From positions 1 to 64,000 of the forward strand of contig CAVSHR010000009.1 in NCBI GenBank assembly GCA_963727625.1: 64,000 bases of DNA, written 5' to 3'. Positions within the stretch are counted from its first letter, which is position 1. Each line of letters begins with the position of its first letter. Below are positions 5,156-52,495 of this stretch, in pieces. The DNA comes from an uncultured delta proteobacterium (lineage in GTDB: Bacteria; Desulfobacterota; Binatia; UBA9968). A model generated the notes under the pieces. That model made no database searches and was not told where the DNA came from. It saw only the letters and a list, made by a program, of their open reading frames with translations. The translations under genes were made by a program, and so were the position numbers.

Positions 5156-5560
5156 ATGAAAACACAATTGCTTAAGGGCATTGCCCTGGCGTCGTTGGTT
5201 ACCTTAACGGCTACTCCTCTTTACGCGCAGACGGCGGGTTCGAGCAATCAAGCCGCCGAAGAGCCCGTTGGAGAGGAAGCGGGTTACGGTGTAGGAGCGG
5301 CTCTCGCGAGCGTCTTCTATATTCCGGCCAAAGTGACTTACGCGGGACTGGGCCTGATCACGGGCGGGCTTGGTTACGTGTTGAGCGGCGGTAGAGCCGA
5401 TGTTGCCAACAACATCATCTATCCGGCGGTCCGGGGTAACTACGTAGTTACCCCGAGTCATTTAAAGGGGACCGAGCCGATCTATTTCGTCGGCGCGCCT
5501 CCGCCCGAGATCGGACCGCGGGCCGATGTGCCGGCAGCAGCTACGACCGCGGTTCGTTAG
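5156..5560 (+). CDS. Hypothetical exported/membrane protein
   Basis: Signal peptide (MKTQLLKGIALASLVTLTATPLYA), Gly-rich hydrophobic hairpin, strong promoter directly upstream. Confidence 0.75.
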   Translation: MKTQLLKGIALASLVTLTATPLYAQTAGSSNQAAEEPVGEEAGYGVGAALASVFYIPAKVTYAGLGLITGGLGYVLSGGRADVANNIIYPAVRGNYVVTPSHLKGTEPIYFVGAPPPEIGPRADVPAAATTAVR

Positions 5561-6329
5561 CCCCAAAACAAACACCGCGCTTCGACCCCTCGATAAACTC
5601 CAACAGGGCCGATACATCCGCATTGGCCCCGGTGGATTTTTTTACTTCTTTTACCGCTAGAGAAAGATTACGCCCCTTTCGGAATAGTATCCGGAAGGCC
5701 TGGCGAATCGCGCGAATCCGTTTGTCCTCGAATCCTGCCCGTTTTAAGCCCACCACGTTGACGCCTCTGACCGTGTGCTGCCAGTCGATGATCGCATAAG
5801 GCGGCACATCGCGGCTGGTTCCGCTGAGCCCGCGCATCAGCGCGAAGTCGCCGATGCGAACGAATTGATGGACGACACAGTTGCCGGAAATAAACACCTG
5901 GTTTCCGACCTCGACGTGACCGCCGAGCAAAGCGCCGTTGGCCAAGATGACATTGTCGCCGAGCTTGCAATTGTGGCCCACATGGGCCGTCGCCATCAGG
6001 AAATTATGATTGCCGATCACCGTCGTTGAGCCTGGAGCCGTGCCGCGATGGATTTGCACATATTCTCGGATGATATTGTGATCGCCGATGCGCAGATAAG
6101 TCGCTTGCCCTCTGTAGGCCTTGTCCTGCGGAGCGTCGCCAAGCACCGCGCCGGGATGAATCTCGTTGTCTTCCCCAATTTCGGTCCAACCGGTGAGATA
6201 GGCGTGCGCCATCACCCGGGTGCCCCGTTTGATCTTTACTTGGCCTTCGATCACTACGTAGGGCCCGATTTCGACCTCGGAATCGATTTCGCAGTTAGAA
6301 TCGATGATGGCGGTGGGATGAATCGGCAT
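5541..6329 (-). CDS. lpxA: Acyl-ACP--UDP-N-acetylglucosamine O-acyltransferase
   Basis: Hexapeptide repeats, IHPTAII, PQD, IREYVQIHRGT, AHVGHNC, VHQFVRIG, DVPPY, GVNVVGLKRAGF. Confidence 0.93.
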   Translation of the reverse strand: MPIHPTAIIDSNCEIDSEVEIGPYVVIEGQVKIKRGTRVMAHAYLTGWTEIGEDNEIHPGAVLGDAPQDKAYRGQATYLRIGDHNIIREYVQIHRGTAPGSTTVIGNHNFLMATAHVGHNCKLGDNVILANGALLGGHVEVGNQVFISGNCVVHQFVRIGDFALMRGLSGTSRDVPPYAIIDWQHTVRGVNVVGLKRAGFEDKRIRAIRQAFRILFRKGRNLSLAVKEVKKSTGANADVSALLEFIEGSKRGVCFGANEPRS

Positions 6330-6343
6330 GAAAATAAAGCGCG

Positions 6344-6541
6344 TCAGTTGTGCGAGTTCTCTTCGTCGTCGTCCTCGTCACCGAGATTGAAATCGAAATT
6401 TTCGCCGGGAATGCGGTAACGCTCCTGAGCCCAAGCGCCGAGATCGATGAGACGGCAACGGTCCGAACAAAACGGCCGGTGCGGGTTATTTTCCCACGGA
6501 GTTTCCTTACGGCAAGTTGGACATTTGACTTTGAGGGGCAC
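6344..6541 (-). CDS. yacG: DNA gyrase inhibitor YacG
   Basis: CPTC...[20 protein letters not shown]; GTG at 6541 with GAAGGAG just upstream. Confidence 0.9.
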
Positions 6542-6557
6542 AACTCCTTCCTCAACC

Positions 6558-7535
6558 CTAACTATCCAGTGTGTTTTTCGCAAATAGCTCGTCCATCTCG
6601 AGCTTTCTTTCCATCAAACCCTGATCGAGCGAATAGCCGATGAAACGCTCTAAGTTGGCGCGATTTTTCTTGACACCTTGCGGCCATGGGTCAGCGCCGA
6701 AAGCAGCTCGCTCCTCTTCAAAGAGATGCCGACCCCAGATAAAGCGCGACCAGTTCGGATCATCATAATATTCCATGCAAGCTTGTTTTGCCCGATCGAA
6801 AACCGTCATGATGCTGGTCGCCAACGCGGGAGTCTTTTTCAACACCTCGTCTTTGAAAGCAATCAAGTGCATGATCGGATAATAGCCGTTCTTGCGAAAA
6901 TATTTTGTCTCCTCCGCCTTTGGGTCGGCGAACAAGCGGCGGATAGCCCCGCCGCCGCGCAGCGCTTCTTTCGGCGGATGCGGTACCATGAGGGCGTCGA
7001 TCTCGCCTTTTTCCAGCATCGCGCCCATCTTTTGCCCGGGCTTTACGAGCTGCATCTTGACGCCTTCGATTGGTTTAAGCGGCACCGCTTCATCCTTGGA
7101 AATATACCAGTCGATCTTGCGCCACGGTACACCGTACTCGGCATCCAAGTCGCCCTTGGCGAGCACCGACAACGTCGTTTGAAAGGTGCTGAGCCCGACC
7201 TTCTTGCCGATCAAATCCTGCGGCGATCGGATGCCGGCCTGCACATTGATCCACATCTGCGACAGGCTGAACAAGCGGCGTGGAAAGACCGGAATGGCGG
7301 TGAACGGCATGCCGCGGCTCTTGGCGATCAAATAGGACGACAGCGAAAGCTCGCAGATATCGAACTCGCCCTTTTGCAGCATGCGCTCGTGGCGGTCCTG
7401 ACCGTGCTTGAGTGGATTGGACTGCCCCACTTCCAAAACTTGTAAATCGATACCCTCGGCCTGCACCGAGCCGTCGAACAATGGAATGTGCCGGTCATAA
7501 TGGGACAACGCTATCGACAACGGCAGGTTAGCCAT
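6558..7535 (-). CDS. 4,5-dihydroxyphthalate decarboxylase-like / type 2 periplasmic-binding-fold protein
   Basis: [50 protein letters not shown]. Confidence 0.8.
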
Positions 7536-41788: not shown

Positions 41789-41871
41789 GCCTTGGGTTGC
41801 AGCAAATCGCCAAATTTTAATCTCTTGTCGCGATCATTCGCACGAGATACCGATCAACCGTGGAGGAGATT

Positions 41872-43044
41872 ATGGGAAATGACTTAAATAAAATTCGCAT
41901 CGACCATATCGGCAGCATGGTGCGCCCGGAGAATCTGAAAGAGGTGTTTGCTCGTTTCGATCGCGGCCATGCGACCCGGGAAGAACTGTCAAAAGCCCAG
42001 GACGAAGCGATCCGCGACCTAATCCAAAAGCAGGAAGCCCATGGCTTGCCGGTGGTCACCGACGGCGAGTTTCGCCGCCACAGCTTCCAGGAAAGTTTCT
42101 CCGAATGTGTCACCGGCTTCGACGTGCCCAAAAATGTCGAGCTCTACTACGAGCAGCGCGATCTCAATCAAACACCGCTGGAACGAGCGGAGCAAAACTT
42201 CGATGACTCCGGACCGGCGATCATCACCCGGCGTGGCGCCGACGAGCGGCTCGGGCTCATCCGCAACCTTCCATTGGAAGAATTACGCTACGCCCAGAGC
42301 GTCGCGAAAGTCCCGGTGAAAGTCACCGTCCTCGGACCGGACCGCATCGCCCAGCGTTTCAAATGGGAAACGTCGCTCGATATTTATAAAGGCCTCGATG
42401 ATTTTGTCGAGCACGTGGTTCAAATCGAACGGCAAATCATCGCAGATTTGGTCAAGGCGGGCTGCAAATACATCCAGATCGACGCTCCAGGCTACACTGC
42501 CTACGTCGACAAGGTTTCGCTAGAGCGTATGCGCTCCCGCGGCGAAGATCCGCATAGAAACTTCCAGCGCTCCATCGACGCCGACAACGCGCTTATCGAA
42601 GGCTTTCCGGGCGTGACTTTCGGCATTCACATCTGCCGCGGCAACGCCCGCACCGTCGATCCAAAGACCGGCAAGCTCGTACCGCAATGGCATCGGGAAG
42701 GATCCTACGACGCCATCGCGGAAAAACTGTTCAACACCCTCAAGCACCAGCGCCTGCTGCTCGAATACGACAGCGACCGTGCCGGCGGCTTCGAGCCGCT
42801 GCGGCTCGTACCTAAAGATAAGATCGTGGTTCTGGGTCTGGTCTCAACCAAGGACTCGGACATGGAAACCGTCGACGACTTGAAACACCGTATCGACCAG
42901 GCCGGTAAATTTCTGCCCATCGATCAACTCGCCTTGAGCCCCCAATGCGGCTTCGGTGGCATCGACTCGAAAGTGCTCAGCGAAGCGGAAATGTGGAAAA
43001 AGTTGGAGACGATCGTCAAGACCGCGCGACAGGTTTGGCTTTAG
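41872..43044 (+). CDS. Cobalamin-independent methionine synthase II-like protein (single domain)
   Basis: DHIGS..RP, TDGEFRR, IQIDAP, HICRGN, LEYD, SPQCGF. Confidence 0.88.
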   Translation: MGNDLNKIRIDHIGSMVRPENLKEVFARFDRGHATREELSKAQDEAIRDLIQKQEAHGLPVVTDGEFRRHSFQESFSECVTGFDVPKNVELYYEQRDLNQTPLERAEQNFDDSGPAIITRRGADERLGLIRNLPLEELRYAQSVAKVPVKVTVLGPDRIAQRFKWETSLDIYKGLDDFVEHVVQIERQIIADLVKAGCKYIQIDAPGYTAYVDKVSLERMRSRGEDPHRNFQRSIDADNALIEGFPGVTFGIHICRGNARTVDPKTGKLVPQWHREGSYDAIAEKLFNTLKHQRLLLEYDSDRAGGFEPLRLVPKDKIVVLGLVSTKDSDMETVDDLKHRIDQAGKFLPIDQLALSPQCGFGGIDSKVLSEAEMWKKLETIVKTARQVWL

Positions 43045-43451
43045 CGCCGCGAGGCTTTAGGAACGTTCCCAGTAGCACGTTCGATACTTTTCAAGCTCGC
43101 GACGGTGTTGGTTGATACGGTTAGGATGACTATTTGACTGCGTGATCTAGACCCTATTTCACGAGCAATGACTCAAAAATCAGCTATTAAGCCTACATCC
43201 AAATGGGGCAAATCCCGCGCGCAAACGCAATTGCTCGCTTCGGGTGATGCGGTTAACCGGAAGGGATGCTCCGTATTTTTAGCATCGTACGATCTAAGCG
43301 CGGGCTTGCATTGATCTTTGTGGCAATTTTTCATGCGACGGAGTAAACTCAGATTTCAAAGTTGCTGGTCAGAATTGATTTCCGTTTCAGAATTCCAACC
43401 CGGCAGCCCAGCGATTGTGTAAACGTCGTCGAACCAAAGTATTTGAACGCT

Positions 43452-44003
43452 ATGTCGTTACGACTTGAGAATGATTCGGTTGTACTGACGCCGGTTTACA
43501 AGGATTGGAAGGCACTCTCATTGCTACTCCCAGAGTTAGACCGTGCCCTCGCGCGGAGTGATTTCAAGGCACGAGTCGTGCTGGTTGATGACGGGTCCAC
43601 AGTCCCAGACCCCGCAACGCTTAGTCAATGTCATTTCGAATCGATAATCAGCGTCGAACTCGTATCACTTCACCGTAACCTCGGTCACCAACGCGCTATC
43701 GCGGTAGGACTTTGCTATATCGGAGCGAACCTGCAACAGAGTACGGTTTCGATTATGGACTCAGACGGTGAAGACGATCCCAAGGACGTTTTACGGCTGG
43801 TTCAGGAATGTGTGGCCCAACGAAACGAGAAGTGCGTCTTTGCCGCTTGGACCAGTCGTTCGGAAGGTTGGCGATTCACCTTCTGTTATCACCTGTATCG
43901 TCTCATTCACTTTCTGCTAACGGGAATCCGTGTGCGCGTAGGAACCTTCAGTGTCATTCCGCCGCTGGCTTTGAAGCGGCTCGTGGCGGCATCAGGCAGT
44001 TGA
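43452..44003 (+). pseudogene. Truncated family 2 glycosyltransferase
   Basis: PVYKDW, VDDGS, NLGHQRAIAVGL, MDSDGEDDP; stops abruptly without C-terminal half/TM helices. Confidence 0.7.
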
Positions 44004-44218
44004 AATCCGATACATACATTGAACAGAATCTTACCTATCTCGATTCAATTGGGAGGTTGCTATCCCTCGGCAATGCGGTTGTGCTTCGCCGGGCGATGCC
44101 AACCGAAGCTCAGATCCTTACTTGGGACCGCCTCTGCATACCCGTTTCGCGACTCGTCGATCGGCTCATGTTGGGCACCGTTGGGAAATCTATTCTAGCC
44201 GTATCGCGCAAGCAATGA
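43990..44218 (+). pseudogene. C-terminal fragment of a class I SAM methyltransferase-like gene
   Basis: YLDSIGRLLSLGN...PTEAQILTWDRLCIPVSRLVD...GKSILAV in another frame, no own start. Confidence 0.55.
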
Positions 44219-44265
44219 TCTTGTCGATAATAGCCCGCGGACACGGCAACCGAATCATTAGAAAG

Positions 44266-45459
44266 ATGAATCTGCGGACCAGCGCGCGTTTTTGCGTGAT
44301 TATTTGTCTTATTTGTGCACTCGATCGGTCAACTGTGTTTGCCGAAGCCCATCCTGCCTCTGGCACGGGCGTTCAAACAGATTTTGTGGAATTTTGGGCG
44401 GCATCGCGATTGCTCATCAATGGTGGAAACCCATTCTCGCCTGTCCAGGTCTTAGACCTGCAGCAATCGGTAGGGTATAGCGATGCCAAACCGCTCTTGA
44501 TGTGGCATCCGCCGTGGGCCCTTTCATTCGTTTTACCGGTCGGCGTTCTGGACTACGGGCTCAGCCAATTTGTTTGGCTAACCCTACACATTTTCTTCAT
44601 ATTGTTTTCGGCACAAAAACTATGGGCGATTTATAGTCCAACAGCACGACAAGCGTATTTGCCGTGGATTGCCGCATTCACTTTTGTTCCAACCTTGATG
44701 GTATTGATAATAGGGCAGATTACCCCGCTCGTCCTGCTTGGGATTGTCGGCTTTCTCTATTTTGAAAGGAAAAATCAGTTATTCTTGGCGGGCTTATCAA
44801 CAACAGCCATATCAATCAAACCGCATCTAGTCTATCTATTTTGGCTCGCATTGCTGCTTTGGGTCTGGAATCAAGGTCGCTGGCGGGTTGTGTATGGTGC
44901 AATGGTAGCTGGCTTAATTGTCGTCATCATACCCGCGATCATCGATCCTGCGGTATATTACCAGTTTATAGAAATGTACCGGGTCCCTGGACAATCGACC
45001 CCATTTGAATTGCCTGCACCAAGTATCGGAACTTTCCTAACGCATTACATCCCCCATGGAAATTTGCCGATTCAATTCCTACCACCGCTCCTAGGAATAT
45101 TATGGATTTTGTGGCATTGGCAAAGTCATAAGGAGAATTGGAATTGGTCTGAACAAGTTCCGTTGATAATATTGGTATCTCTCAATCTGAGTCCGTACGC
45201 TTGGACGTACGATCAGGTTCTTCTACTCCCCGCGGTTATCCATGGTTTCGTGATTATGAGCCGGCAGAGTTTTTCGTGGCATAAGTCCGGGTTCTGGCTT
45301 TTGTACAGTGGGGTTAATGCATGCTATTTTGCAGGCAAGCTTATTGTAACCACGGACTTATATTATTTTTGGCTAGCTCCTGCGTTTCTGTTAATATACT
45401 TAGGAATAAGTGCCAGTTCTCGCAGCAGCATTCCGGAAAGGTCTTATGGAGTTACTTGA
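44266..45459 (+). CDS. GT-C fold membrane glycosyltransferase (GT87/DUF2029-like)
   Basis: DFVEFWAA.RL...GNPF, WHPPW, GQI, IKPHL, PYAWTYD; many TM helices. Confidence 0.8.
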   Translation: MNLRTSARFCVIICLICALDRSTVFAEAHPASGTGVQTDFVEFWAASRLLINGGNPFSPVQVLDLQQSVGYSDAKPLLMWHPPWALSFVLPVGVLDYGLSQFVWLTLHIFFILFSAQKLWAIYSPTARQAYLPWIAAFTFVPTLMVLIIGQITPLVLLGIVGFLYFERKNQLFLAGLSTTAISIKPHLVYLFWLALLLWVWNQGRWRVVYGAMVAGLIVVIIPAIIDPAVYYQFIEMYRVPGQSTPFELPAPSIGTFLTHYIPHGNLPIQFLPPLLGILWILWHWQSHKENWNWSEQVPLIILVSLNLSPYAWTYDQVLLLPAVIHGFVIMSRQSFSWHKSGFWLLYSGVNACYFAGKLIVTTDLYYFWLAPAFLLIYLGISASSRSSIPERSYGVT

Positions 45460-45700
45460 AACGAATATCGTTCGATTGAGCAAGTTCAACAGCGGATACG
45501 GATTGAGACGGAGCGTTCTAAGTTTAAGCCGGTACATATTTCAAAGTTAGCGGGGACCCTCAGAACCGAATGCGGCTTCGGCGGCATCCACTCGAAAGGT
45601 TTTTACGAAGATGAAATTGGTCAGAGGTTAGGTAAATTGTCGAAACCGCGCAATGAATTTGCGCACCAACTCTAACAACGTACACCTAACAAGATCTCAG

Positions 45701-45970
45701 CTATACTTCGCTCAGCCACTCTTCATGCACATCAACCCAGATTGAATCTTGATCACCGCAGTTCGACACTTCGCTGAGATCAAAACGGACGGTATAGAGC
45801 GGTTTATGGATGCCGCGGTGATCCCTAACATTTTCAAGAATACCGTGGACTAAACCGATGACGCCGCGTTTGCCGCGAATATAATGCGGAGTGCGCGGGT
45901 TGCCGGCGGGATTTTCCGCGGCGACCAGGACGGCATCGCCTATCTTGTACTTACTGGAGCTGAATTCCAT
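45701..45970 (-). CDS. Nitrile hydratase beta C-terminal SH3-like / thiocyanate hydrolase alpha-like subunit
   Basis: YKIGDAV.V, PRTPHYIRGKRGVI, PLYTVRF, IWVDVHEEWL. Confidence 0.82.
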   Translation of the reverse strand: MEFSSSKYKIGDAVLVAAENPAGNPRTPHYIRGKRGVIGLVHGILENVRDHRGIHKPLYTVRFDLSEVSNCGDQDSIWVDVHEEWLSEV

Positions 45971-45979
45971 CGTTCTCTC

Positions 45980-47053
45980 TCAGTCCGGGCGAACTCTCGG
46001 CGCTTCCGGCGTCGCTCCGGCTCTTTCGGCCGCTTGCTGTTGGGCCGGTTCCAGCGCGTAGCCCGCGCCGATTAAGCTGTCGACCGTGACGAGCTTGGCC
46101 AATTCTTCTTCGGCCATTCCCTCGATCCCGGCGGGCCGCTGCGGCAAAACGAAATAACGAACATCGGAGGTGCTGTCCCAGACTCGGACCTCTTTACGCT
46201 CCGGAACTTTCAACCCGAACATATCCTGGACGCATTGGCGCGGGTTCTGGACGATATTGGTCCGGTAGCTTTCGTGCTTGTACCACCAGGGGGTGTCGCC
46301 GAGGATATCGTAGGGGTAGCAGGAGCACAGCGTACAGACGATCACGTTATGCACCGCGTCGGTGTTCTCGACGACGACCAGCTTACCGACTTTCCCCTGG
46401 TGCACACCCATTTCTCGAAGCGCTTCCCTGCCCGTCGTTAGGAGCGCCTCTTTAAAAGCCGGGTCCGTCCATGCCTTGGCCACAATCACGCCGCCGGCCC
46501 ATGGACGTTCTTCATGGAGCTGCCTCCAGCGCTGTTCCAACTCCGCTCGAGTTGCCCAGCCGCGCAGGATCAGCGCCTGAACGAAAACCTCGAGCAGCTC
46601 GGAATAGTCTTTCAGGTCCTGCTGCACACTCGCCATGCGCTCCTCAAGTTCACCTTGGTGTTCTTTCTTTTTGATCTTGAAAAAGTCGTCGTAGTCGCCG
46701 CGCTCCTTGCGGTTGTCCTCGGTCACCATGTCCATGCCTTCGACGGCGCGCGCCGAGACCAGAGCGATGCCCTTGACGTATTCATCGAGCCATTCCTCTA
46801 AGTAACGCACCCGGGCCTCGATGTTTTTTCCCTGCGGTTTGGCGATCTTGAAAAAATGGTCCTTCTTTTTGAGCGTCTCGCGAACTTTGAGCAGGTCATA
46901 AAACGTTACCACCCCGCGCCGCAGCAAGTATATAATCCTCGGCTCGAAGCGCTTGGCGCGATAATACTCCAGATCTTCTTCGACCGCTTTGATATGCGCG
47001 AGGTAGTCGTGCATATGACCTTCGAACGGCTTGTGTCCATGCTTTCCCGACAT
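45980..47053 (-). CDS. Nitrile hydratase alpha / thiocyanate hydrolase gamma-like subunit with long N-terminal extension
   Basis: VAKAWTDPAFK, VENT..VHNVIVCTLCSCYP (Co-type), PWWYK..YR, VRVWDST, VLPQRP.G.EG; RBS GGAGG. Confidence 0.88.
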   Translation of the reverse strand: MSGKHGHKPFEGHMHDYLAHIKAVEEDLEYYRAKRFEPRIIYLLRRGVVTFYDLLKVRETLKKKDHFFKIAKPQGKNIEARVRYLEEWLDEYVKGIALVSARAVEGMDMVTEDNRKERGDYDDFFKIKKKEHQGELEERMASVQQDLKDYSELLEVFVQALILRGWATRAELEQRWRQLHEERPWAGGVIVAKAWTDPAFKEALLTTGREALREMGVHQGKVGKLVVVENTDAVHNVIVCTLCSCYPYDILGDTPWWYKHESYRTNIVQNPRQCVQDMFGLKVPERKEVRVWDSTSDVRYFVLPQRPAGIEGMAEEELAKLVTVDSLIGAGYALEPAQQQAAERAGATPEAPRVRPD

Positions 47054-47075
47054 CGTTCCTCCGAATCGATCTACA

Positions 47076-48791
47076 TCAGTGGGTATCGAATATCTCCTGG
47101 AACTGTTTCAACTTGGCTTTGGTCGCTTCAGTCTCAGCTGCCGTCGGTTTCATGGCATCGACAGCCGGCGGCAAACAACCGAACTTCATCAGGCATGCCA
47201 TCAATAACAGCCGCGCCTTCGTGGCCGTTAAGTTACTGCCGGCAATCGATAACGGGTCGCGCGTCGGATCGACGAAGCCGCCGGCGTTGCCGCGGCCGAC
47301 CTTGACCACCGGCATGCCGCTAAACACGGCGCGCTTGAGCGCCGCATTGACAGAGTTGCTCATGGCGCCGAACGGCGCCGATCCTTCGGCGACAAAACCG
47401 GCCAATGGCGCATCGCGCAAGTTTTTCTCGATCCGGGCCAAGATGTCGACCTCGCTGCTGGCGTCGCCCGAAGTATCCGGCGGCAGGTAGCGCGCGTGCT
47501 TGACAATGGTGACCGTCGGAATCGCGCTAGCAAGCATCTCTCCATTCGCGTCTTTAACGGCGATGGCGATCTTTTCAACCTTTGAACCTTGAACCCTAGA
47601 ACCTTGAACGTCTCTGGGAAACTGCGTCAAATTCACCGCTGACCGGTGCGTATGCCGCTTCACCGGCTTAAATGTGAACTGCGGCGCTCCGGGATGGCCC
47701 ATGCGGCCGATGATGCCGCCATGACCGCCGGTGGCGACATAGCCGCCGGGGCGAGCGTCGGATTTTTGCACGTCGCGCGAAGTGAAAATCTGCTCGTCGA
47801 GGATCGCCACCGCGCCGACGCAGTCACGGCCGTTTTCATCGGCCCAGATCCGCGAAGCGATGTAGTCCACCGAGTCGACGATGTTGCGATCGCCGTCGTT
47901 GGCGATGGCGCCGTGAGGCCGCTGGGACGAATTTCCGCAAATCGGCACTGCCGTATCGATCAGCAAGTTCAGCCAGTAGGTCGTCTCTTCGACAAACGGG
48001 CTGCCTTCGAGCCAGATCGCGCCCAAGTATTTGCCGCTCGCGAGCGCCCGTTGAACGGTATTGGTCAGCCGCGCCAGCGCCGCCATGGGAGGTTCTTTGC
48101 GCAAGTAGCCTGGCCGGTAAGGAAAGAAATCGACGCCGCGCGTCTCGGGCGCGATGTCTCCTTCGCCGATATCGGTGCGCTCCTCGCCGCGCCGGCCGGT
48201 TGGATAACCGCCGGAAGGCAAGGCGCGGTAAAAATCGAAGTTGGCTTTTCTACTTATGAGGCATCCCACACCTTCGTCGGAGATACCTAAACGATCGATC
48301 TCTTCGAACAGCCGCGAGCCGTCGGGGAAGAAAGGAACGCGGCATAATTCGGCGGGCGCGTTCTTTTCCGTGCCGTCCATCTCCCATGCTTGTCCGTTCG
48401 CCTGCCGCGCCATGTAGGGCAGGGGATAGAGACCATCTTCAGGTCTGAGCGTTACTTCGTACACCGGCCGATCGATCGGGCTGGTGCGCTCCTTGTGAAT
48501 GATCCCGGCACCGTCGAGATAGCCGTCAGGAGGAGCGTAGAGTTCAGCCGAGTCGCGTTCGAGCGGATGGGCGCTAAACTGTTCGATGTAAACGGTTACC
48601 GGCGCCGCCAGGCGCTGCGGGCGCAGGACGTCGAAGCGCATCGACGACCCGTCCGCGTGGGCGCGCGCCGGCAAGCCGTACCGCTCGCGCGCTTTATTGC
48701 TGGTCACCAGCGGTTCGGTGTTCTGAATGGTTGCGGTGGGTCCGGAAAAAATCGCGATACGCGGTTTCTCGCCGCCGTCTACATGGACCAC
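47076..48791 (-). CDS. Asparaginase-fold protein, atypical (571 aa)
   Basis: WLEGSPFVEETTYWLNLL...PICGNSSQRP...DGDRNI.D, RDVQK, GMPVVKVGR, GSNLTATKARLLLM. Confidence 0.72.
   Translation of the reverse strand: MVHVDGGEKPRIAIFSGPTATIQNTEPLVTSNKARERYGLPARAHADGSSMRFDVLRPQRLAAPVTVYIEQFSAHPLERDSAELYAPPDGYLDGAGIIHKERTSPIDRPVYEVTLRPEDGLYPLPYMARQANGQAWEMDGTEKNAPAELCRVPFFPDGSRLFEEIDRLGISDEGVGCLISRKANFDFYRALPSGGYPTGRRGEERTDIGEGDIAPETRGVDFFPYRPGYLRKEPPMAALARLTNTVQRALASGKYLGAIWLEGSPFVEETTYWLNLLIDTAVPICGNSSQRPHGAIANDGDRNIVDSVDYIASRIWADENGRDCVGAVAILDEQIFTSRDVQKSDARPGGYVATGGHGGIIGRMGHPGAPQFTFKPVKRHTHRSAVNLTQFPRDVQGSRVQGSKVEKIAIAVKDANGEMLASAIPTVTIVKHARYLPPDTSGDASSEVDILARIEKNLRDAPLAGFVAEGSAPFGAMSNSVNAALKRAVFSGMPVVKVGRGNAGGFVDPTRDPLSIAGSNLTATKARLLLMACLMKFGCLPPAVDAMKPTAAETEATKAKLKQFQEIFDTH
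47574..47610. repeat. Short imperfect 7-8 bp tandem repeat within CDS
   Basis: TTCAACC TTTGAACC TTGAACC CTAGAACC TTGAACG, encoding VQGSRVQGSKVE on minus strand. Confidence 0.6.
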
Positions 48792-48854
48792 AGAATTCTC
48801 CTTCTAAATGAGATCGACTGTTTACGGCACAGGAGTAGTGCTAGATCGCCGATG

Positions 48855-49436
48855 CTACTTCAATTCGAACGGAATTTGTTCCGGTCCGTATCCCTGCCAA
48901 TAATTATTCGCCGCCGGATCGTAACGTCCCTGCAAGAAGCCGCCGGCCTTCTCGGCCCGGATGATAATCGCAACTGTCCGCTCCTCGCCGCTTTCCTCGG
49001 CGTGGATCTGGTAGGGCGGCACGAGGTCAACCTTGCCGGGCCCAACTCTGACATTTTCGCTGCGGCGAATCTCGGCGTAATCCGGCTTAGAGCCGTCGTC
49101 GAGGCGCTCGTAGCGTTCGATGCTTTCGTGCCCGTCGAGCACGCCGTAGAGAGTCCAGTTGTGCGCGTGGTCGTGAATCTGAGTGCGGGATTTGGGCGCC
49201 TTGATCAGGCCGTTGATCACGAACTTGTAGTCTGGGTCCTCGTAAAAGAGGAGATTTTGCGCCCTGCCGATTTGCTGGCAGGTCGGCCAACTCTTCGATT
49301 GTTCCCGAACCGACGGATCGGCGAGCAACGCCTGCAAAACAGGTGTCATCTTTTGCCAGCGAACCGATGGATCCTTTTCTTCAGCGAAAAGCTCGCGCGT
49401 CGACGCGATAAATTTTTCCACGGCGGTCTGAGGCAT
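48855..49436 (-). CDS. Cysteine dioxygenase-like cupin
   Basis: LLFYEDPDYKFVI, IHDHAHNWTLYGVLDG.E..ERY, PYQIHAE (3-His pattern); RBS AAGGAGG. Confidence 0.78.
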   Translation of the reverse strand: MPQTAVEKFIASTRELFAEEKDPSVRWQKMTPVLQALLADPSVREQSKSWPTCQQIGRAQNLLFYEDPDYKFVINGLIKAPKSRTQIHDHAHNWTLYGVLDGHESIERYERLDDGSKPDYAEIRRSENVRVGPGKVDLVPPYQIHAEESGEERTVAIIIRAEKAGGFLQGRYDPAANNYWQGYGPEQIPFELK

Positions 49437-49797
49437 GGAACCCTCCTTGGTACGGTTTTCAAGAGAGTGCTACTGGGTTAATTATTAGTCTGTCCGGAAG
49501 GCGGGCGTCAAGCGCGCCTAAGACAATCCAGCGTGCCAATCCGCGGATGAAAGGTTTAGAGAACTCAGAGAAACGAAAAACAAGGAGCGATGAAATCTTT
49601 TCCCCTACAGGTCATTCCCGAAACCTGACCAAGAAAGTGACAGCACAGCGGCTGCGTGGGACGCGACGACCTACCGAACCGCGTAAAGTCCATTAAACCA
49701 GCATTGCCGAACGACGGCCATTCAATTTGTAACTGTCCCCGCACTACACAAACGCTAAAATTACCGCTAGAATCCATGCTGCCTGGTAGTTCTAGTC

Positions 49798-50445
49798 ATG
49801 GAAGCATCAAAATTTAAGTTCCTGCTTGTCGGCGCCGTGGTCATCGCTATAGGGGTCGCTCTCGGCACGGCGCTATGGCTCAAGCTTGGACCCCATAACC
49901 AATTCAGTCGAGGTCTGCTCGAAGGCGGCGACGGCATGAAGGATTATGGTGCGGTTCCGGACTTCTCCTTGACGGAAAGAAACGGCAGTACCATAAATCT
50001 AACCCAGCTCCACGGCAAAATCTGGGTTGCAGACTTTATTTATACGAGCTGCACCGACACCTGTCCGCTGCAAACGGCGATGATGGCCAAGCTCCAAGAG
50101 AAATACGCAGACAAGCCGAATGTCCAACTGGTCTCGTTCAGTGTCGATCCCGAACGTGACACGCCCCAAGCGCTTACTGTCTACGCCGAGAAATACCAGT
50201 CCGATCCCAAACGCTGGTTTTTCTTGACCGGGCAGCGCAATCGAATTATTAGCCTGGTCCAGGAAGGTTTTCATTTGGCCGTGGCCGCGATCCCCGATGA
50301 TAAGGACCCGAGCGGCACGATTCCGCATAGCTCGCGCTTTGTGCTGGTGGACAAAAGCGGCCGAATTCGCGGGTATTACGACAGCCGCGAGCTGGAAGCG
50401 TTCGTGCGCCTTAAGAATGACATCGATACTTTGGTGAAAGGGTAA
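49798..50445 (+). CDS. SCO1/SenC family copper chaperone
   Basis: N-terminal TM, FIYTSCTDTCP (CxxxC), SVDPERDTP, HSSRFVLVD. Confidence 0.93.
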   Translation: MEASKFKFLLVGAVVIAIGVALGTALWLKLGPHNQFSRGLLEGGDGMKDYGAVPDFSLTERNGSTINLTQLHGKIWVADFIYTSCTDTCPLQTAMMAKLQEKYADKPNVQLVSFSVDPERDTPQALTVYAEKYQSDPKRWFFLTGQRNRIISLVQEGFHLAVAAIPDDKDPSGTIPHSSRFVLVDKSGRIRGYYDSRELEAFVRLKNDIDTLVKG

Positions 50446-50450
50446 CAAAG

Positions 50451-51323
50451 ATGGCCAACGACAGAAACAAAAGAGCCAGGCAACCGACCACCAACTCGCT
50501 TGCGCGCCAGGGCCCCAACTGGCCATTGTTTGTTCTCGCCTTGATCGGCATGGGCTTGTCCGGCTATCTCACCTTTTCCGCGTGGCAGGGAAGTCAAGTT
50601 GCTTTCTGTACCGAAGGCGCCGGTTGTGATGTCGTGCTCAATAGCCGCTGGTCAACCCTCCTAGGCATGCCGACTGCGTTCTGGGGTTTCCTTACCTATG
50701 CGCTCCTCGCCGCTGTCGCCTGGAACAAGAATGCCGCGGATCAATGGCGCTGGGCTTGGGTGATTTCTTTATTCGGGCTGCTCTACAGCCTCTATTTGAC
50801 TTCGATCTCTTTCTTCGAGTTGCAAGCTGCTTGTCCCTATTGCCTGACCTCGCTTGCTTTGATGACGGCGATTTTTATTTTGCTGACTTTCCAGAAGCCG
50901 AGCAGTCTTGCGAAATTTTCCTGGGGGCCATGGTTGGCCAAAACGGTCGGAACCGCCGCTGTCGCCATCGTATTACTTCATACATATTATGCCGGCTTTT
51001 GGGGCAATGCTCCCGGACCGGAGGATCCTTGGATTCGCGGCTTGGCCGAACATCTGTCGAAAAGCGACGCTAAATTTTACGGCGCCTCCTGGTGCCCGCA
51101 TTGCAAAGACCAGAAAGAGATGTTCGGCAGTTCGGTTGAACGCATTCCCTATGTGGAGTGCAGCCCCGGCGGACCCCAAGCGCCCCAAGCGCAGGTGTGT
51201 AAAGATAAAAATATTGAGAGTTACCCCACTTGGATCATTAACGGACAGCGCTATACCGGCGTCCAACCGTTGGATACCCTCGCCCAGTTGACCCAGTTCC
51301 AGTATCAAGGAGACAAACCATGA
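50451..51323 (+). CDS. VKOR family protein fused to thioredoxin-like domain
   Basis: FCTEGAGCDVVLNS, CPYC, then YGASWCPHC, YVEC, YPTW. Confidence 0.93.
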   Translation: MANDRNKRARQPTTNSLARQGPNWPLFVLALIGMGLSGYLTFSAWQGSQVAFCTEGAGCDVVLNSRWSTLLGMPTAFWGFLTYALLAAVAWNKNAADQWRWAWVISLFGLLYSLYLTSISFFELQAACPYCLTSLALMTAIFILLTFQKPSSLAKFSWGPWLAKTVGTAAVAIVLLHTYYAGFWGNAPGPEDPWIRGLAEHLSKSDAKFYGASWCPHCKDQKEMFGSSVERIPYVECSPGGPQAPQAQVCKDKNIESYPTWIINGQRYTGVQPLDTLAQLTQFQYQGDKP

Positions 51324-51790
51324 GAGGGTGCGATTGGCAATATAAGATAACCTTGAATCTGGCCGCCGTTGCGCTGGTTATGGCCTTCTGGCCCGCGGTC
51401 GCGCCGGCCGACCCGTCAAAATATCCGGAATTCGCCCAACAGACGGTTCCTCCGGATGTCAAACTTGTCTTTATTAGCATCGAGGAACTCGTCAAGGAAT
51501 TGAAAGGTAGAATCCGACCGGTGATCATCGACGTCCGTTCAACGGAGGAATTCCGCGAGGTGCACATTCTGGGCGCGGTTTCCGCGCCGCTGGCGGAATT
51601 CAAAGATTACATCAAAAGCATCCCGCGTGATCGGCCGGTCGTGCTTTATTGAGCATGCCCTCATCACCTGGCCAGTCTGGCCTATGGCATTCTCTACGAA
51701 GACGGCTACCGCAACATGAAAGTGCTCAACGAAGGAATCGTCGGTTGGTACCAGAAGCGCTACCCCATGGAAGGAACTAAGGCTCCCTGA
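51320..51790 (+). CDS. Exported rhodanese-domain protein, predicted selenoprotein (Sec at TGA 51650-51652)
   Basis: IIDVRS..EF...HILGAVS.P...RPVVLY-TGA-ACPHHLA...GYRNMKVLNEGIVGW..KRYP; domain complete only with readthrough; 156 aa. Confidence 0.85.
51653..51690 (+). promoter_or_regulatory. Putative bacterial SECIS element
   Basis: Lower stem ATGCC (51655-59)/GGCAT (51686-90), upper stem GGCCA-GTC-TGGCC (51670-82) directly 3' of the UGA. Confidence 0.6.
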
Positions 51791-51799
51791 CCACAAGAC

Positions 51800-52495
51800 A
51801 TGGCTCGCAAGAACGCGGTGATCCTTCTTAGCGGCGGCATCGACTCCGCTACCGCCGCCGCAATCGCTAAACAGGTCGGTTTTGACCTGCACGCGCTAAG
51901 CTTTTCTTACGGCCAGCGCCACGAGCGCGAGATCGTGTACGCCGGCAAAGTCGCGGCGTTCTTGCAGGCCAAAACCCACCGGGTGATCCGCTTCGATCTA
52001 AGAGCAATCGGCGGTTCCGCACTCACCGATCAGATCGAAGTACCGAAAGGACGAAGCGAGACGGAGATTTCAACCGGCATACCGGTCACCTACGTGCCGG
52101 CGCGCAACACGATCTTCCTCTCCTTCGCGCTCGCCCTCGCCGAGCGCATCGAAGCGCAGGATATTTTTTTCGGCGCCAATCAACTCGATTACAGCGGCTA
52201 TCCCGATTGCCGCGAGGCCTATATCCGCGCCTTTGAAACGATGGCGAACCTCGCCACCAAGGCCGGCATCGAGGGCAAGTCTCGGCTGCACATTCAGACA
52301 CCGTTGCTGCAGATGACTAAAGCGAAAATCATTGCCACCGGCCTGAAGCTCGGCCTCGACTATGGATTGACCTGGAGCTGTTACGACCCGGTGCACGATG
52401 GGCGCGCCTGCGGCCGCTGCGATAGCTGCCAGCTCAGGCTTAAAGGATTCAAAGAGGCAGGAAGCGTCGATCCGATCGCCTACGCCGACCATTAG
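51800..52495 (+). CDS. queC: 7-cyano-7-deazaguanine synthase
   Basis: LSGGIDS, YGQRH, TYVPARN, YPDCR, TWSCY...CGRCDSC. Confidence 0.96.
   Translation: MARKNAVILLSGGIDSATAAAIAKQVGFDLHALSFSYGQRHEREIVYAGKVAAFLQAKTHRVIRFDLRAIGGSALTDQIEVPKGRSETEISTGIPVTYVPARNTIFLSFALALAERIEAQDIFFGANQLDYSGYPDCREAYIRAFETMANLATKAGIEGKSRLHIQTPLLQMTKAKIIATGLKLGLDYGLTWSCYDPVHDGRACGRCDSCQLRLKGFKEAGSVDPIAYADH

Follow-up and report, generated by a model that had tools for sequence, protein, structure and literature searches.

Gene content and arrangement

The window analysed here is a stretch of 64,000 nucleotides (C9:1-64000; GenBank contig CAVSHR010000009.1) from the 6.6-Mb genome of an uncultured bacterium of the Binatia (assembly GCA_963727625.1, G000 in what follows), and the subject of this report is a block of four adjacent genes within it. 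All four open reading frames (ORFs) lie on the minus strand and are co-oriented: they encode a cupin resembling thiol dioxygenases, a protein of the asparaginase superfamily (AsnFold), an N-terminally extended alpha subunit of a nitrile hydratase (NHase), which we call NHa_fus, and the C-terminal domain of an NHase beta subunit, NHb_C (Table 1). The gaps along the block are short: 63 nt between cupin and AsnFold, 22 nt between AsnFold and NHa_fus and 9 nt between NHa_fus and NHb_C. A preliminary description of this DNA, made from the sequence alone, had read four co-oriented genes with these spacings, and the spacings agree exactly. Its gene identities, including that of a “thiol-dioxygenase-like” cupin, are borne out by Pfam, profile and fold matches, and so is its remark that an activator and a classical amidase are missing: among the 11 flanking ORFs scanned there is no amidase-signature enzyme, no nitrilase-family amidase and no NHase activator.

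The recurrence of the block in many genomes (see below) indicates that the arrangement is more than chance. Gaps of only 22 and 9 nt argue for co-transcription, and the four genes are probably co-expressed in Binatia-like bacteria. Each of the first three genes has a Shine-Dalgarno-like motif ahead of it (AAGGAGG, AAGGAG and GGAGGA, respectively), and a weak one (GAGAGA) precedes NHb_C. Upstream, a 361-bp region parts the cupin gene from an opposite-strand SCO1-VKOR-rhodanese-QueC array. A consensus scan found no minus-strand promoter-like site within 49437..49797, where site counts did not exceed those of shuffled sequences, and no internal terminator or promoter signal above shuffles in the block itself.

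Table 1. Features of the four-gene block and its surroundings (positions in the window)
Feature	Position	Strand	Description
Cupin	48855..49436	-	193 aa; thiol-dioxygenase family; putative 3-His metal site H88, H90, H145
AsnFold	47076..48791	-	571 aa, GTG start; asparaginase superfamily
NHa_fus	45980..47053	-	357 aa; Co-type NHase alpha domain (residues ~151-357) plus novel N-terminal domain
N-terminal extension of NHa_fus	46604..47053	-	residues 1-150; His-rich start, long helices
Metal-binding motif V239-CTLCSC-Y246-P247	46313..46339	-	Co-type signature
NHb_C	45701..45970	-	89 aa; C-terminal domain of NHase beta subunit only
Divergent intergenic region 5' of cupin	49437..49797	.	361 bp; presumed promoter region of the block
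Short MetE-like protein (Meth_synt_2)	41860..43044	+	Pfam match; conserved convergent neighbour, candidate member only

The nitrile hydratase-like pair

The core of the block is, as judged from its sequence, an atypical cobalt-type (Co-type) NHase made of two polypeptides: an N-extended alpha chain and an 89-aa chain corresponding to the beta C-terminal domain (betaC). Residues 155-330 of NHa_fus match PF02979 (NHase_alpha) with E 7.8e-65, and solved Co-type enzymes share 42-48% identity with the alpha domain (~43% for alpha chain 1ire_A); among 120 listed metagenomic clusters, the matches to NHa_fus are 82-89% identical. The motif VCTLCSCYP is invariant in 13/13 aligned sequences that are otherwise 44-86% identical, and we take the Thr and Tyr of VCTLCSCY to be the signature of the Co-type. 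Against the equivalog models the protein scores below cut-off in both cases: 209.8 bits for NHase alpha (TIGR01323; cut-off 249.85) and 146.7 bits, E 7.3e-43, for the gamma subunit of thiocyanate hydrolase (SCNase; TIGR03887, cut-off 291.45). Its alpha domain also matches the SCNase gamma chains in the PDB (E ~1e-36).

NHb_C matches PF02211 (NHase_beta_C) with E 1.2e-13 over profile positions 9-97 of 98, and it aligns to residues ~130 onward of the canonical 209-aa beta subunit of its own genome; PF21006, the beta N-terminal domain (betaN), was not found in it by the Pfam scan, and its score against the NHase beta equivalog TIGR03888 is 41, below the cut-off of 152.2. R26 (the Arg of NPRTP), P28, Y30, G33 and G36 are invariant in the NHb_C alignment, and the gene adjoins or follows NHa_fus in 18/18 and 4/4 fetched loci. 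The NHase-like pair of the preliminary description therefore stands as far as the alpha and beta families are concerned, but the second chain is only the betaC half, with no betaN domain. Modelled as a complex, NHa_fus and NHb_C score 0.88 against 0.01 for the best of three controls, above a mark that was reached by 116/157 solved complexes and 2/215 mismatched pairs (rough counts, with own alignments used). The runs share at least 81% of contacts, the partner has a predicted local distance difference test (pLDDT) value of at least 81, and NHb_C R26-P28 is predicted to touch T241-L242 of the metal loop. The model supports binding of NHb_C by NHa_fus short of proving it, with the proviso that, because NHase alpha/beta complexes have been solved, the pass may reflect known structures.

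The N-terminal extension (residues 1-150) is the most distinctive part of the alpha chain. It begins with a His-rich segment, KHGHKPFEGHMHD, and has 37 invariant columns among 11 sequences that are only 37-81% identical; the invariant residues R32, R35, R45, R81, R83, R115 and R139 are candidates to stand in for betaArg56. The AlphaFold2 (AF2) model of NHa_fus, with a mean pLDDT of 74, places helices at residues 17-45, 51-60 and 78-103; residues 104-127 are conserved yet of low AF2 confidence. One candidate identity, a diverged betaN domain, was not supported: comparison with eight canonical or split betaN sequences gave an hhalign probability of 1.4%. A profile of the extension retrieved nothing from the PDB but coiled-coil noise (E>=0.17), a Pfam scan of 11 members gave only weak coiled-coil families, there was no usable match in the Atlas, and 150 genomes sampled from elsewhere in the phylum yielded no copy of the extension. 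Foldseek with the whole NHa_fus model returned alpha chains only and is uninformative on the extension. PF27793, which is attached to some NHa_fus homologues, may already describe it. The most divergent fused alphas, those of group C (L051:6728-7789, L052:6986-8044 and L059:6980-8041; groups are defined below), carry a His-rich insertion of ~16-20 residues in the extension; taken with the group A N-terminus, which is also rich in His, the insertion hints at a part in metal handling. The new extension presumably replaces the beta N-terminal domain.

An intact betaN gene located elsewhere in the genome was also considered and rejected: only the canonical beta gene, its activator and a truncated remnant on contig C2 were found. 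The remnant (G000:C2:287537-287701) is an orphan fragment resembling the first 50-60 residues of the betaN of genus g3, and it looks like a pseudogene relic because a stop soon closes the frame. The canonical Co-type NHase of the same genome (G000:C4:491500-493500; L035, ~5518-7500) consists of an alpha gene, whose true start lies at about residue 128 of a long ORF, the 209-aa beta and a 131-aa betaN-like activator; SDR and FAD-oxidoreductase genes are its neighbours, with a reverse-transcriptase-like ORF downstream. Genus g3, which belongs to the same order, has three-gene NHases with separate betaN (~102 aa), betaC (~100 aa) and alpha genes (L060, L061, L067-L070). At four other loci (L062-L064 and L071) a betaC-like gene stands upstream of alpha and no betaN was found by tblastn.

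The asparaginase-fold protein

AsnFold contains PF00710, the asparaginase N-terminal domain, above cut-off (E 2.2e-9, 37.6 bits; cut-off 22.5), and PF17763, the C-terminal domain, below it (29.4 bits; cut-off 34.6). The type II subfamily model TIGR00520 gives 59.7, far below its cut-off of 314.3, and a profile of the AsnFold family matches the L-asparaginases of the PDB with E 7e-28. An alignment of 17 full-length members, with 43-56% identity, shows what is conserved. T21, in the motif GPTATI, is invariant in 17/17 sequences; we presume from the motif that it is the canonical nucleophilic Thr, in a stretch that HMMER leaves unaligned to solved asparaginases. HMMER does align EGSPF of AsnFold to HGTDT of those enzymes, so that the second Thr appears as Ser and the triad Asp as Pro, with the Lys kept: S264-P265, replacing Thr-Asp, is nearly invariant in the family and K343 is invariant. 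An insertion of ~200 aa follows the N-terminal Thr motif and contains ~25 invariant residues (for example FSAHPLE.D), and a C-terminal FDTH is conserved. At E<=1e-3 the full library yielded 1184 representatives, of which 220 also passed E<=1e-30; many sequences were fragmentary, and the Atlas names for the clusters are hypothetical or asparaginase domain-containing proteins. By its profile matches, AsnFold falls in a branch of the asparaginase superfamily that is widespread and uncharacterised, and a hydrolytic amidohydrolase function of a non-canonical kind is plausible.

The cupin

The cupin has no NCBIfam match and no Pfam family at E<=0.1, and thus no membership of CDO_I. A profile of 11 sequences (orthologues plus five paralogues of the same genome) was more informative: its best match in a PDB profile search is mercaptosuccinate dioxygenase (MSDO; 8vni, E 7.5e-19), and it also matches the CDO-type protein 4qma (E 1.4e-10) and the 3-mercaptopropionate dioxygenases 6xb9, 4wvz and 3uss (E 4.2e-10 to 2.3e-9). 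The AF2 model has a pLDDT of 92.5, and its top Foldseek matches are all thiol dioxygenases (4tlf, 4qma, 8vni and 6xb9; template-modelling score 0.75-0.79, E ~3e-13). ADO and PCO, thiol dioxygenases that act on protein cysteines, are among the fold matches. H88, D89, H90 and H145 are invariant across the 11 sequences, and by residue count on the profile alignment H88, H90 and H145 correspond to H93, H95 and H149 of 8vni; the available part of the MSDO preprint names His93 and a 3-His motif (10.64898/2026.05.19.726356). The invariant Y172 and R171 fall close to MSDO Y178 and Arg175 in the sequence alignment. Alignment and model thus suggest a fold and metal site of the thiol dioxygenase type with a second sphere that differs.

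The cupin has several paralogues in this genome. One, 59% identical (G000:C11:158731-159312; L036), adjoins an Amidohydro_2 gene, with divergent glycine-reductase-type (GrdB-like) genes. Another, 46% identical (G000:C4:576747-577298; L037), is convergent with pyridoxal phosphate (PLP)-enzyme genes of Cys/Met metabolism (transsulfuration type) and PALP genes.

Conservation within the order

One sample of 121 genomes of the order was searched with the alpha, cupin and AsnFold proteins alike, and the tables were collated by hand; the tallies include four unpublished genomes (G005, G238, G241 and G252), on which no conclusion rests, and absence of AsnFold from a genome was judged at E<=1e-60. The block is kept in at least 11 genera, usually in the order MetK-AhcY-cupin-AsnFold-NHa-NHb. 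Fused alphas fall into three groups by identity to NHa_fus. Group A (74-89% identical) comprises 52 genomes, five of them represented by contig-end fragments, and AsnFold stands beside the fused NHa (same contig, within a few kb) in 45/52; the exceptions are G029, G195, G196, G210 and G252, with G001 and G024 left undecided. Group B (52-59%) comprises 15 genomes and three fragments, with AsnFold adjacent only in genus g5 (G031 and G033). Group C (~45-50%) consists of three loci, and AsnFold lies elsewhere in the genome. Genus g5 belongs to another family and keeps all four genes in a different order, AsnFold-NHa-NHb-cupin. Among 18 NHa-anchored loci, six have all four genes and one has the cupin and the pair. 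Genus g3 has AsnFold in 24/28 genomes and cupin orthologues in 28/28.

At least two rearrangements have thus left the block together, yet its modules can also be separated. The preliminary description had named conservation of the neighbourhood as a check on its proposed operon, and the outcome is mixed: the four-gene block is found in at least 11 genera and, rearranged, in g5, but its modules also occur singly. Since the NHase pair, AsnFold and the cupin can part company, the operon idea is only partly supported.

At one group C locus (L059, G029:C7:1418098-1432865) a co-directional array consists of an Amidohydro_2 gene, a divergent fused NHa, NHb_C, a 99-aa ORF and a MetE-like gene; a solute-binding protein gene follows and transposase genes flank the array.

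Wider distribution and genomic context

A scan with AsnFold of one genome per species gave 535 loci, and the 80 best were retained. Twenty-four of these are at least 81% identical to AsnFold and have the cupin upstream in every case (24/24) and NHa_fus downstream in 22/24, the other two ending at a contig edge; one further locus is the g5 arrangement. The AsnFold-to-NHa spacing, measured between tblastn match ends, is ~20-70 nt in most loci and 274 nt at the largest. The remaining 55 loci are 53-78% identical and belong, by record title, to Chloroflexota, Methylomirabilota/Rokubacteria, Alpha- and Betaproteobacteria, Actinomycetota, Cyanobacteriota, Nitrospinota and others, with a few labelled as Binatia or “Deltaproteobacteria”. 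Their commonest neighbours (each at no more than nine loci) are ABC transporter parts and NMT1-type binding proteins (nine), SBP_bac_5 (six), TctC (six), amidase-signature enzymes (five) and luciferase-like monooxygenases (four), and one locus has a canonical-like NHase ~5.7 kb away.

AhcY lies directly upstream of the block in 18 of the 24 close loci, giving the order MetK-AhcY-cupin-AsnFold-NHa-NHb, which the preliminary description did not recognise as the usual setting, and in those 18 the block converges on a MetE-like gene and HemW. The MetE-like gene is directly convergent with NHb_C in most related loci, and at L059 it is co-directional and downstream of the divergent NHase pair; the protein scores 229 bits against NCBIfam PRK06520, below the cut-off of 313. 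The block stands away from MetK-AhcY, as one unit, in G000 (where MetK-AhcY is on contig C6) and at L073. In this window, lower-GC glycosyltransferase genes of the GT2 and GT87 families stand between the MetE-like gene and NHb_C, and GC content is 0.47-0.51 across 43000-46000 compared with 0.57-0.60 on either side. Because of this low GC, and because MetE-like and NHb_C genes are directly adjacent in most related loci, the glycosyltransferase stretch is likely a recent insertion.

The space behind AhcY differs from one lineage to another. A gene for a protein of ~285-294 aa, protein X, recurs there: the space holds X-cupin in genera g117 and g124, X-AsnFold at L102, L106 and L145 (L104 is cut at the contig start) and AsnFold-NHa-NHb-cupin-X in g5, and at L160 the content includes Amidohydro_2 and cyclase-like genes. 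The position of the block accordingly allows two readings, a functional link to homocysteine/methionine metabolism or residence in a variable island between housekeeping genes.

Comparison with known systems

Among the closest known relatives of the pair is the Co-type NHase of Pseudonocardia thermophila (PDB 1IRE). Both have the VCTLCSCY motif, with 42-48% identity in the alpha domain, and the betaC domain with its conserved Arg is present here and predicted to pack on the metal loop; unlike the Co-type enzymes, the block has neither betaN nor an activator, and its alpha chain carries a new 150-aa domain. Toyocamycin NHase (ToyJKL) is a three-subunit NHase with a split beta. Thiocyanate hydrolase and the three-subunit NHases likewise have a split beta in which a separate small subunit is the betaC half, but they keep a betaN subunit, which this cluster does not have, and the alpha chain of the block scores below the SCNase gamma cut-off. 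The order (N-extended alpha)-(betaC) matches none of the six NHase gene organisations given in the available part of a 2020 review (PMC7193024). The fused beta-alpha NHase of the eukaryote Monosiga brevicollis, as covered in that same part of the review, shares with NHa_fus an N-terminal fusion to alpha, a His-rich character and no known activator (PMC7193024); its fused part is a complete beta, whereas the extension here has no detectable similarity to beta.

The cupin shares its fold and 3-His site with MSDO, 3-mercaptopropionate dioxygenase and cysteine dioxygenase, and the motif ER.DDGS with MSDO; it differs from thiol dioxygenases in being only ~18-23% identical in fold alignments and in having no CDO_I match, and from MSDO in that, by alignment, the outer-sphere His-His-Tyr positions and Arg66 are not conserved. 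Both domains of the type II L-asparaginases and glutaminase-asparaginases are recognisable in AsnFold, with the second Thr (as Ser) and Lys positions conserved, but AsnFold departs from type II L-asparaginase in its length of 571 aa, its ~200-aa insertion rich in invariant residues, the Pro in place of the triad Asp and its FDTH. At the level of chemistry, 3-cyanoalanine is assimilated by NIT4 and asparaginase (nitrile to Asn to Asp and NH3; PMC8567248, as described in the accessible part of that paper), which is formally the same as the route proposed in the preliminary description; the NIT4 enzyme, however, belongs to the nitrilase superfamily and is not a metallo-NHase. No 3-cyanoalanine synthase gene is linked to the block among the ORFs scanned.

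A possible pathway and its alternatives

We infer three activities for the block. The hydratase would turn a small molecule with a C-N triple bond into an amide, AsnFold would hydrolyse that amide, or an Asn/Gln-like product, to an acid and ammonia, and the 3-His cupin, working in the same metabolic context, would oxidise a related low-molecular-weight thiol to the sulfinate. That these steps form one shared pathway, nitrile to amide to acid plus thiol oxidation, is the likeliest of the readings considered here, though we hold it only tentatively, at somewhat below even odds. Because the block usually follows MetK-AhcY and faces a MetE-like gene, our best guess at the substrates is that they are related to sulfur amino acids: beta-cyanoalanine, gamma-cyano-alpha-aminobutyrate or thiol- or thioether-bearing nitriles. 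If there is a shared pathway, cyano-amino acids would, by analogy, be the most natural fit to a partner of the asparaginase/glutaminase fold.

A number of observations weigh against this pathway. In ordinary NHases an essential Arg comes from the beta N-terminal domain, which also lines the pocket for the substrate. ORF and Pfam scans found no such domain in the hydratase cluster, and mutation of betaArg56 abolishes the activity of known NHases (PMC7193024, available part); with the source of Arg56 missing, hydratase activity itself is uncertain. AsnFold has Pro instead of the Asp of the asparaginase Thr-Asp-Lys triad. In the cupin, A156, I158 and R160 take the places of MSDO His161, His163 and Tyr165, and N61 that of Arg66 (positions by HMMER alignment only; MSDO residues from the accessible part of 10.64898/2026.05.19.726356). 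Four of the five group A exceptions have the NHase pair and no AsnFold match in the genome, as do 13 group B genomes (g117, g121 and g124), and in the fifth, G029, AsnFold lies ~98 kb from the fused NHa. The pair stands alone in varied neighbourhoods, with no AsnFold or cupin nearby, at 11 of the 18 NHa-anchored loci; in g3, AsnFold and cupin are far apart and no fused NHase is among the matches listed. At the 55 AsnFold loci of other lineages there is no fused-type NHase or such cupin nearby, from which it follows that the AsnFold family is not intrinsically an NHase partner.

Much of this would fit co-location without a shared pathway: independent enzymes, each with its own substrate, gathered in an island between AhcY and HemW and inherited together. 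Cupin, AsnFold and the NHase pair each occur alone in related genomes, AsnFold is a broad family (535 loci spread over many phyla, with no recurrent NHase neighbour in the 55 loci not of the Binatia type), and the AhcY-HemW region is variable in content, differing between lineages (g117/g124; L102/L106/L145; L160), so co-location could be an island effect. Yet in at least 11 genera the four genes remain side by side on one strand with very short gaps between them, they have been re-assorted and are still together in g5 and have moved as one block in G000 and L073, and gaps of 22 and 9 nt favour co-transcription. We consider mere co-location less likely than a shared pathway, but the strongest of the alternatives. 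The absence of betaN bears on another alternative, that loss of this domain and gain of a coiled-coil-like one changed the function of the pair to some other catalysis or to a regulatory or structural role. There is no betaN in the cluster and, besides the canonical beta, only a truncated remnant elsewhere; both chains fall below the NCBIfam equivalog cut-offs (209.8 against 249.85 for alpha, 41 against 152.2 for beta), and the N-extension is very strongly conserved, with its 37 invariant columns. A complete metal-binding motif and a beta Arg that are invariant under strong purifying selection, together with 42-48% identity of the alpha domain to solved Co-type enzymes, make such a change of function improbable.

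Two further alternatives give the cupin a more specific task. In an organic thiocyanate (S-cyano) pathway, the hydratase would convert R-S-CN to an S-alkyl thiocarbamate, AsnFold would release R-SH, CO2 and NH3, and the cupin would oxidise R-SH to R-SO2H. Such a scheme would use all three chemistries on one substrate and would account for a thiol dioxygenase that has no obvious role with ordinary nitriles in an NHase cluster, and the NHase family does include thiocyanate hydrolase, whose gamma model TIGR03887 matches the alpha domain (E 7.3e-43). We regard it as very improbable: the alpha domain scores higher as NHase alpha (209.8 bits) than as SCNase gamma (146.7 bits), the modules are separable, and the known thiol dioxygenases of this branch bind carboxylate-bearing thiols, according to the part of the MSDO preprint that is available (10.64898/2026.05.19.726356). 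Alternatively, the cupin might be a maturase, a protein-directed thiol dioxygenase that installs Cys-sulfinate at the metal site of the hydratase and so replaces the activator. The cluster has no activator gene, activators have been proposed to share in oxidation of the active-site Cys (PMC7193024, available part), and the protein-cysteine dioxygenases ADO and PCO are among the fold matches. Five genomes of the order sample have neither a cupin match nor any NHase alpha match, a correspondence that is phylogenetically confounded. The closest relatives of the cupin, MSDO and 3-mercaptopropionate dioxygenase, are however small-molecule enzymes; the genes of the NHase pair lie apart from those of any cupin in g117, g119 and g121, as they do in part of g124; and cupin orthologues (~70-74% identical) occur in unrelated neighbourhoods in 28/28 g3 genomes without the fused NHase. 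We give a maturase role little credence, and equally little to its elaboration into an activator-independent NHase in which the cupin would make the sulfinate (possibly sulfenate) and the His-rich N-domain would deliver the metal and stand in for betaN.

The shared pathway, were it real, would join processes that have been considered separately: we know of no established link between hydration of a C-N triple bond, amide hydrolysis and thiol dioxygenation. We also know of no NHase studied so far that works without a betaN domain, within beta or separate, and almost all need an activator. Neither this gene combination nor an NHase without betaN turned up in the literature search (most subscription journals were outside its coverage), and in the full-text literature searched no paper naming Binatota or Binatia also mentions “nitrile hydratase”. 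A strongly conserved NHase with neither betaN nor activator but with a new domain on alpha would, if confirmed, show which parts of beta are really required and could give a simpler two-gene biocatalyst. Across a large uncultured group from soil and groundwater, conservation of the block roughly equals that of its housekeeping neighbours MetK and AhcY, and finding its substrate would define a new piece of sulfur-nitrogen metabolism as well as give a first function to an asparaginase-like family that has 535 loci in one genome collection.

Neighbouring genes

Protein X, which has no match among PDB sequences or in Pfam or NCBIfam, recurs directly after MetK-AhcY, beside cupin or AsnFold; its places are L156-L158 and L160, L102, L104, L106 and L145, L031/L105, and G000:C4:425230-426072. 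Divergent from the cupin, positions 49798-52495 of the window hold co-oriented SCO1/SenC, VKOR and rhodanese genes and then QueC. QueC makes the nitrile preQ0, and a functional link was considered with this gene 2.4 kb away; since the same query set detected no QueC in the related loci searched, its adjacency is taken as coincidental. The SCO1, VKOR and rhodanese genes were judged coincidental likewise, except that SCO1 recurs at L073.

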